Shown: positions 36,008 through 37,653, counted from the first letter of the stretch. The stretch: DNA of 53,693 bases from a virus (UHGV-0129084); one strand, 5' to 3'. The notes: generated by a model not told the origin, from the letters alone. Translations and numbers: made by a program.

Positions 36008-36364
36008 TGCTTTGCCTCATGCCACTTTTGCTTCAGGAGATAGCCTTCCAGGGGCCAGATTTGATCGATAGCATCTTTTCGAGCGTACTCGCGACCAACA
36101 TCAAAGTTGAAGATTTCTGGTCTTACGCACGCAGATTTTCCCGTTACGGTATATCCATTTTTGAGGACCATAACGCAGAACGTTAAGAGTTTTAACGACT
36201 CATGACCTTTGTCGATATCTGTTTTTGAATTGTAAACAGAGATGAAGTTGTCCCCGTGGCTGGCATCATATGCAGTGAAATAATGTTCACTTTGAAGTGG
36301 TTTACTGAATTTGGCCACCTGAACAGAGGTGATATGCTCACCTCAGAACAACACAGGTGCCATA

Positions 36365-36667
36365 ATGAAAAAAAGAAATTTCAGCGCAGAGTTTAAACGC
36401 GAATCCGCTCAACTGGTCGTTGACCAGAATTACACCGTGGCAGATGCAGCCAGCGCTATGGATGTCGGCCTTTCCACAATGACGCGATGGGTGAAACAAT
36501 TACGTGATGAGCGGCAGGGAAAAACACCAAAAGCCTCCCCCATTACCCCGGAACAAATTGAAATCCGTGAGCTCAGGAAAAAGCTACAACGTATTGAAAT
36601 GGAAAATGAAATATTAAAAAAGGCTACCGCGCTCTTGATGTCAGACTCCCTGAACAGTTCTCGATAA
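36365..36667 (+). CDS. IS911-like transposase OrfA (HTH)
   Basis: [21 protein letters not shown]...[22 protein letters not shown]; A-AAA-AAG slippery heptamer at 36616-36622 near the 3' end. Confidence 0.85.
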
Positions 36668-36693
36668 TCGGGAAACTCAGGGCGCGTTATCCT

Positions 36694-37512
36694 GTGGCCA
36701 CTCTCTGCCATGTGTTCGGGGTCCATCGCAGCAGCTACAAATACTGGAAAAACCGTCCTGAAAAGCCAGACGGCAGACGGGCTGTATTACGCAGCCAGGT
36801 ACTTGAACTGCATGGCATCAGCCACGGCTCTGCCGGAGCAAGAAGCATCGCCACAATGGCAACCCAGAGAGGCTACCAGATGGGGCGCTGGCTTGCTGGC
36901 AGACTCATGAAAGAGCTGGGGCTGGTCAGCTGTCAGCAGCCGACTTACCGGTATAAACGTGGTGGTCATGAACATGTTGCTATCCCTAACTACCTTGAAC
37001 GGCAGTTCGCCGTGACCGAGCCAAATCAGGTGTGGTGCGGTGATGTGACCTATATCTGGACGGGTAAGCGCTGGGCGTACCTCGCCGTTGTTCTCGACCT
37101 GTTCGCAAGAAAACCAGTGGGCTGGGCCATGTCGTTCTCGCCGGACAGCAGGCTTACCATGAAAGCACTGGAAATGGCATGGGAAACCCGTGGTAAGCCC
37201 GTCGGGGTGATGTTCCACAGCGATCAAGGCAGTCATTATACGAGCAGGCAGTTCCGGCAGTTACTGTGGCGATACCGGATCAGGCAGAGTATGAGTCGGC
37301 GTGGAAACTGCTGGGATAACAGCCCAATGGAGCGCTTCTTCAGGAGTCTGAAGAACGAATGGGTGCCGGCGACGGGCTATGTAAGCTTCAGCGATGCAGC
37401 TCACGCAATAACGGACTATATCGTTGGATATTACAGCGCACTAAGACCGCACGAATATAATGGTGGGTTACCACCAAACGAATCGGAAAATCGATACTGG
37501 AAAAAACTCTAA
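36694..37512 (+). CDS. IS911-like transposase OrfB (DDE catalytic domain)
   Basis: 272 aa in the -1 frame relative to orfA; integrase-core segments WCGDVTYIW and [11 protein letters not shown]. Confidence 0.85.
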
Positions 37513-37653
37513 CTCGGTGGCCAGTTTTTGTTGACCACTTCACTTTGAATGAGTTGTTCAATGTGTTCAGGGGTGACTTTTAGTGGTGTGTTCTCTTTGC
37601 TGGTCATTATTTCTTCCTACAAAGTTCGTAGACTTGACTCTTTCAGTTGCAAA

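Follow-up and report, generated by a model that had tools for sequence, protein, structure and literature searches.

Insertion sequences of the IS911/ISEc52 type, which belong to the IS3 family, generate a target duplication of 3 bp, occasionally 4 bp. In IS911, the motif GGAG forms part of the frameshift stimulator. The copy of IS911 carried by Shigella phage Sf6 (AF547987) has TG...CA termini, a 100-aa OrfA, the slippery heptamer A AAA AAG, a 382-aa OrfAB fusion and a 3-bp target duplication, and it lies inside a phage gene, the ninG of Sf6.

The Pfam family PF13876 (Phage_gp49_66), whose description names Gp49 of phage N4, a small phage-borne protein, corresponds to the Acb4 family of anti-CBASS sponges (bioRxiv 10.1101/2024.12.30.630793; 10.1101/2025.07.12.664507). 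Its member from Bacillus phage SPO1 forms a homotetramer that acts as a sponge for 3'3'-cGAMP and in this way defeats CBASS. All eight homologues tested bind cGAMP, 3'3'-cAA is bound only by those of phages of Gram-negative hosts, and Gram-negative homologues also differ in specificity (same two preprints).

SSU5-like phage-plasmids constitute the third element of comparison. Cyrano (pLF82) is the SSU5-like phage-plasmid of Escherichia coli LF82 (PMC9928086), and elements of the SSU5 group differing only by the gain or loss of an IS have already been documented in a published survey. In Cyrano and in the related pWEM25-p1, a gene of the Acb4 family is found uninterrupted within the order integrase, glutaredoxin, Acb4-family gene, tRNA cluster and ligase. 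In this study we examined a stretch of 53,693 nucleotides from a virus (UHGV-0129084), hereafter the window, in which the same order is conserved and the Acb4-family gene is split. We conclude with strong confidence that a copy of ISEc52 transposed into an SSU5-like E. coli phage-plasmid, at codon 21/22 of its 116-aa Acb4-family gene, and that this was a sporadic and probably neutral insertion.

The sequences flanking the insertion are 97.7% identical to Escherichia phage Cyrano and 79.5% identical to SSU5 over the shared stretches, and numerous E. coli plasmids in the 101-114 kb range align with them at 99-100% identity, among them two IS-free plasmids that are 100% identical in the flanks across positions 35700-38200. 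Genes for a Rep3 initiator (Rep3_N), ParA/MipZ, a primase, a helicase, a ligase, nrdAB, dnaE, a RecA-like protein and a Gp38 adhesin/tail-fibre were identified in the window. Judged from this gene content and these identities, the replicon is an SSU5-like phage-plasmid living as a plasmid in E. coli, and residence in an enterobacterial cell is therefore its normal state. The earlier note, made from the sequence alone, had taken the IS as a mark of recent residence in an enterobacterial host, which is true, but trivially so for a phage-plasmid with Rep3, ParA and tail-fibre genes. Differences from a further relative, pD4-A, were observed elsewhere in the window, at 17518-19578 and 21172-22284. 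The initiator region has been swapped, the window coding for Rep3_N where pD4-A has an initiator annotated as RepB family, and the pD4-A gene whose annotation is LAGLIDADG family homing endonuclease finds only a partial match in the window, where a RecA-like gene of 357 aa lies at 22316-23389 and an SPFH/Band 7 gene at 21189-22019. pD4-A also has a fimbrial operon and a Phd/Doc pair, both of which the window lacks.

The inserted sequence was confirmed as a 1250-bp element of the IS3 family occupying positions 36293-37542 of the plus strand, with TG...CA termini, beginning TGAAGTGG and ending CCACTTCA. Over all 1250 of its 1250 bases it is 99.9% identical to elements annotated as 'IS3-like element ISEc52' among 5,426 complete E. 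coli genomes, a coverage and identity that preclude a chance match, whereas near-identity to IS911 was not found, the Sf6 copy, of the same length class, being 95.0% identical. ISEc52 is thus the proper name of an element that the earlier note had called IS911-like, a description that remains fair for the type of element within the IS3 family but not for IS911 itself. Its length, left and right inverted repeats (IRL and IRR), OrfA/OrfAB architecture and 3-bp duplication are those of ISEc52, and the single base that differs from the ISEc52 copy of E. coli CP029164 is a synonymous substitution in orfB, at IS position 978 (CGA for AGA, both arginine); the insertion site in the window had not previously been recorded. 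The element is bounded by imperfect 36-bp inverted repeats, IRL (36293-36328, plus strand) and IRR (37507-37542, minus strand), which agree in 25 of 36 bases once the right end is reverse-complemented. In a three-way alignment, IRL was exactly that of ISEc52 and showed three differences from IS911, while the terminal stretch of IRR was the same in the window element and in the IS911 of Sf6.

ISEc52 was also found in Salmonella phage SEN22 and, beside genes annotated as late promoter-activating protein and phage antirepressor, in an E. coli plasmid of 96.7 kb (NZ_CP041922.1). Short fragments of it occur in Aeromonas phage AP1 (MT713136; 250 bp, 97%) and in Escherichia phage phi456 (OR339795; 192 bp, 99.5%), left over, perhaps, from earlier insertions or from recombination.

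The coding capacity of the element is complete, in agreement with the intact orfA and orfB and the A-AAA-AAG frameshift site described in the earlier note. orfA (36365-36667, plus strand) codes for 100 aa with an HTH_Tnp_1 domain (Pfam PF01527, E 1.4e-14), the slippery heptamer A AAA AAG (36616-36622) has the phase relative to orfA that a -1 frameshift requires, and the orfB frame (-1 phase) extends from 36610 to 37512, with its stop codon at 37510-37512. Reading 36365-36622 and, after a -1 shift at the heptamer, 36622-37512 yields an OrfAB fusion of 382 aa that matches the NCBIfam model NF033516 (transpos_IS3) with 380.6 bits against a cut-off of 160, and in which the N-terminal HTH is joined to a C-terminal DDE catalytic core (rve, PF00665, E 1.6e-31, profile positions 2-102 of 102). 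The 60 bases 3' of the heptamer align without difference to those of IS911. The RNA fold predicted to begin right after the heptamer is a three-way junction, with an energy similar to that of shuffled sequences (z = -1.17), and the argument for a frameshift stimulator rests on the sequence identity with IS911 and not on the fold.

These intact parts fit a copy of ISEc52 that is probably active. The possibility that it looks intact and yet no longer transposes, for instance because of host factors or weak frameshifting, might draw on the Shine-Dalgarno-like motif upstream of the heptamer (36601-36604), which reads GGAA in the window where the IS911 of Sf6 has GGAG; the frameshift rate of ISEc52 may indeed differ from that of IS911. 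However, GGAA is also present in the other aligned copy of ISEc52, the window copy departs from that element by one synonymous base only, and the occurrence of ISEc52 in 946 records with an identity of at least 99%, in up to 25 places per genome among the complete E. coli genomes, implies ongoing transposition. We consider an inert copy unlikely.

The sequence CTTT is present on both sides of the insertion (36290-36293 and 37543-37546), and a 4-bp target duplication with an IS starting at 36294 had accordingly been proposed in the earlier note. This proposal had to be abandoned, because other copies of the element begin with TGAAGTGG right after unrelated flanks, which assigns the T at 36293 to the IS as its first base. 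The duplication is therefore the canonical 3 bp, CTT, at 36290-36292 and 37543-37545, and the fourth matching T is coincidental. In the alignment, the E. coli CP029164 copy runs from TGAAG to TTCA between two AGG triplets and the Sf6 copy is enclosed by two GTT triplets, the duplications at other IS copies being AGG, GTT, AAA, GAT, ATC or GTT. The empty site, ATGTTCACTT followed directly by TGAATGAG with one CTT, was recovered exactly in Cyrano, pWEM25-p1 and pD4-A, and the stretches of Cyrano matched by the left and by the right flank have exactly 3 bp in common (record positions 39553-39555).

The same junctions bear on whether the insertion could have been created during assembly, through the wrong placement of a multicopy IS in the contig of the phage-plasmid. 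Many E. coli genomes carry several copies of ISEc52, in up to 25 places each, and repeats of this kind do cause misassemblies; but the junctions in the window are base-precise at the IS termini, and the 3 bp repeated perfectly on either side of the IS occur only once at the empty site, an arrangement that a misjoin would not yield. Such an artefact is, in our judgement, exceedingly improbable.

The target itself, TTCA-CTT-TGAA (36286-36292 and 37546-37549), mimics with four bases on each side the IS termini (...TTCA and TGAA...), and resembles a miniature junction of a circle in which IRR and IRL are separated by 3 bp. Because of this mimicry, the truncated product retains codons 22-23 (Ser-Glu) by chance. 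A general preference for targets of this kind was considered and rejected, since the pattern was found at none of 13 other insertion sites in genome_contigs, nor at the CP029164 and Sf6 sites, and the resemblance is treated as a coincidence. A clean 3-bp duplication has been kept at four of those 13 sites. Insertion directed by an inverted-repeat-like target was likewise discarded, as the 18 bases to the left of the duplication match IRR at just 6 of 18 positions when compared by hand. Two related elements from other Enterobacterales (genome_contigs) have a left flank that reads ATGTAG-nnn just before IRL and an IRR that ends in CCACTACA; there the flank resembles an inverted IRR tip, which could reflect insertion beside an IR-like sequence, as for IS911.

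The interrupted gene lies on the minus strand, and the transposase is oriented antisense to it. As had been proposed for a gene of about 116 aa split by the element, removing 1253 bp (the IS and one CTT) restores a continuous ORF of 351 nt and 116 aa, in which the duplicated triplet (AAG when read on the coding strand) straddles codons 21 (CAA) and 22 (AGT). In the window, the 5' fragment (37543-37607, minus strand) runs into IRR and stops after 32 aa, whereas the 3' fragment (36004-36292, minus strand) has neither a start codon nor a ribosome-binding site of its own, its sole in-frame start being a GTG at 36318, inside IRL.

The gene is located between a glutaredoxin gene and a tRNA cluster, in agreement with the position given in the earlier note. 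The glutaredoxin gene (35762-36007, minus strand; Pfam Glutaredoxin, E 8.6e-11) is directly downstream, its ATG overlaps the stop codon of the Acb4-family gene (ATGA, 36004-36007), and it is followed by a terminator-like hairpin and T-run (35738-35757, minus strand) that closes a two-gene acb4-grx unit. The overlap and the hairpin make the two genes look like a single translationally coupled unit, and the insertion may lower glutaredoxin expression by polarity. A promoter scan of 35600-38000 found no sigma-70-like promoter, so that the promoter of the acb4-grx unit was not located and the effect on glutaredoxin is speculative.

On the other side, a GC-rich hairpin, AAAGGGGC-TTCG-GCCCCTTT followed by T's, was read by eye at 37651-37673 (minus strand), in the interval that separates tRNA-Ser from the beginning of the Acb4-family gene; it is absent from the list of the terminator scan, probably as its stem takes up part of the T-run. 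The tRNA cluster (37829-38482) comprises Ser-TGA, Thr-TGT, Tyr-GTA and Asn-GTT. It contains stretches 84-92% identical to the tRNA-Thr/Asn region of P1, P7, D6 and RCS47, which suggests a module exchanged between P1-like and SSU5-like phage-plasmids.

What had been described simply as a small phage gene codes for a small phage-borne protein whose identity had been missed: the restored protein matches PF13876 with 101.6 bits against a cut-off of 27 (E 3.4e-29) over profile positions 1-82 of 82, and the same domain is carried by 119 of the 120 homologues listed. Homologues were found in 657 phage records, those of N4-like coliphages being 39-46% identical, while none of the NCBIfam models matches the protein and its only matches in PHROGs are families of unknown function. 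Identity to SPO1 Acb4 is about 20%, and a search of PDB sequences with the restored protein returned one weak match, to 9e4w (E 0.014).

An AlphaFold model of the restored 116-aa protein, built on 73 homologues, had a pLDDT of 81, with helices predicted at residues 13-19, 28-33, 50-56 and 84-115 and strands at 20-27, 57-64 and 69-75. This arrangement fits the Acb4 protomer fold, i.e. a three-stranded antiparallel sheet flanked by helices on the N-terminal side and by a long helical extension at the C terminus. When the model was compared with the PDB using Foldseek, the only significant matches were chains of 9e4w, the SPO1 Acb4 structure (E 5.5e-4, probability 1.0, target-normalised TM 0.62-0.70), the next-best match having an E of 0.14. 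Besides PF13876 and the predicted fold, the restored protein has core F-N and G-R motifs in common with SPO1 Acb4 and the N4-like homologues. It is set apart by an additional loop at residues 35-49, which is poorly predicted in the model.

Eight of the SPO1 ligand contacts could be mapped through a phmmer alignment, K36 and K81 of SPO1 falling outside the aligned stretch. Four are kept or conservatively replaced (F62=F82, N63=N83, F48 to Y68 and I66 to V86), and the other four are changed (E49 to T69, V56 to C76, Y57 to V77 and T70 to Y90). Profile match and model together support membership of the restored protein in the Acb4 family and fold, and from both of these it is a probable cyclic-dinucleotide (anti-CBASS) sponge. 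In contrast to the acb4 genes of SPO1 and the N4-like phages, the gene in the window is inactivated.

By analogy with IS911, the events leading to this allele can be proposed as follows. A programmed -1 frameshift at A AAA AAG would yield OrfAB, the DDE transposase in which OrfA and OrfB are fused; the element would then be copied out as a circle with abutted ends 3 bp apart, and the circle would integrate with duplication of 3 bp of the target, here CTT. The gene is now split into a 32-aa stub and a startless 3' fragment, so that the probable cyclic-dinucleotide sponge is knocked out. The translationally coupled glutaredoxin downstream may be under-expressed as a result, as we infer from the gene arrangement.

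The restored gene was detected in 77 of the 5,426 complete E. coli genomes, always plasmid-borne, full length and at 95-100% identity, and the interrupted allele in none of these 77. Searches of phage, plasmid and E. coli genome collections found no record spanning the junction, the junction 36-mer was absent from genome_contigs and viral_contigs, and the two hybrid ORFs that the insertion creates matched no recorded ORF. With every carrier full length and the junction in no collection searched, the insertion stands as a recent singleton. The perfect duplication, the 100% identical IS-free flanks, the single synonymous base of difference and the lack of any other sequenced relative with the insertion together lead us to conclude that it is recent and sporadic. 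The gene had been called evidently dispensable, which holds for the maintenance of the replicon but is too strong otherwise, considering that all 77 E. coli carriers keep it at full length.

A neutral or nearly neutral hit during plasmid carriage, represented by a single allele, is the most likely evolutionary reading. Selection for the knock-out would offer a different explanation, in which the sponge is a liability, either because guard systems (PanDA, Panoptoo, Panoptes) sense nucleotide sequestration and kill the cell or because a plasmid-borne sponge could blunt the CBASS of the host itself, and in which the IS allele let the phage-plasmid establish or persist in such an E. coli host, as a natural escape mutation. 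Precedent for it exists in E. coli PanDA, which is triggered by the Acb4 of Bas69 or N4 alone: expression of Bas69 acb4 by itself cuts colony formation more than 1000-fold, and phages escape through loss-of-function mutations in acb4 (bioRxiv 10.64898/2026.08.10.743972). The homology of the interrupted gene to the N4-like Acb4 proteins and the variability of its slot, occupied by an unrelated 302-aa ORF in Escherichia phage CMS-2020a, point in the same direction. However, a single interrupted allele stands against full-length genes in all 77 other E. coli carriers. Moreover, the genes whose expression exceeds background in LF82 lysogens, with Cyrano in its plasmid state, do not include the orthologue CYRAN_41 (PMC9928086), and for this reason the Acb4-family gene is probably a lytic-phase gene that would not be toxic during carriage. 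On this balance selection is very unlikely to account for the allele, and we retain the neutral insertion as the preferred reading.

Two positions near the insertion are variable among relatives. In the closely related phage-plasmid CMS-2020a (CP053388.1, 654-1562 of the compared stretch), the slot between glutaredoxin and tRNA-Ser lacks the Acb4-family gene, and the AT-rich ORF found there, on the opposite strand, has no match in Pfam; the position has the character of a variable accessory locus that may serve defence or anti-defence genes. The spacer between integrase and glutaredoxin, which measures about 210 bp in the window (35552-35761), is a second variable spot beside the first. One gene away from the Acb4-family gene, it holds a different IS, ISKox3, in pWEM25-p1 (1597-2817 of the compared stretch), and in Cyrano an extra 555-nt gene, CYRAN_43 (2769-3323 of the compared stretch), for which expression 723-fold above background is reported in LF82 lysogens (PMC9928086).

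Both the IS and the gene family are known, and IS3-family insertions in phages and phage-plasmids are well documented. The insertion therefore adds little to biology, and its only added value lies in the identity of the target gene. The gene carried by the E. coli SSU5-like phage-plasmids as 'Gp49 family' or hypothetical is an Acb4-family candidate anti-CBASS sponge, in a group for which a DefenseFinder survey of anti-defence genes had returned Rad only. The isolate constitutes a natural knock-out that can be compared with its IS-free relatives, identical at 100% in the flanks, with regard to the role of the sponge. If selection had in fact favoured the loss of the gene, the allele would represent a field example of host IS elements purging anti-defence genes from a domesticated phage-plasmid.
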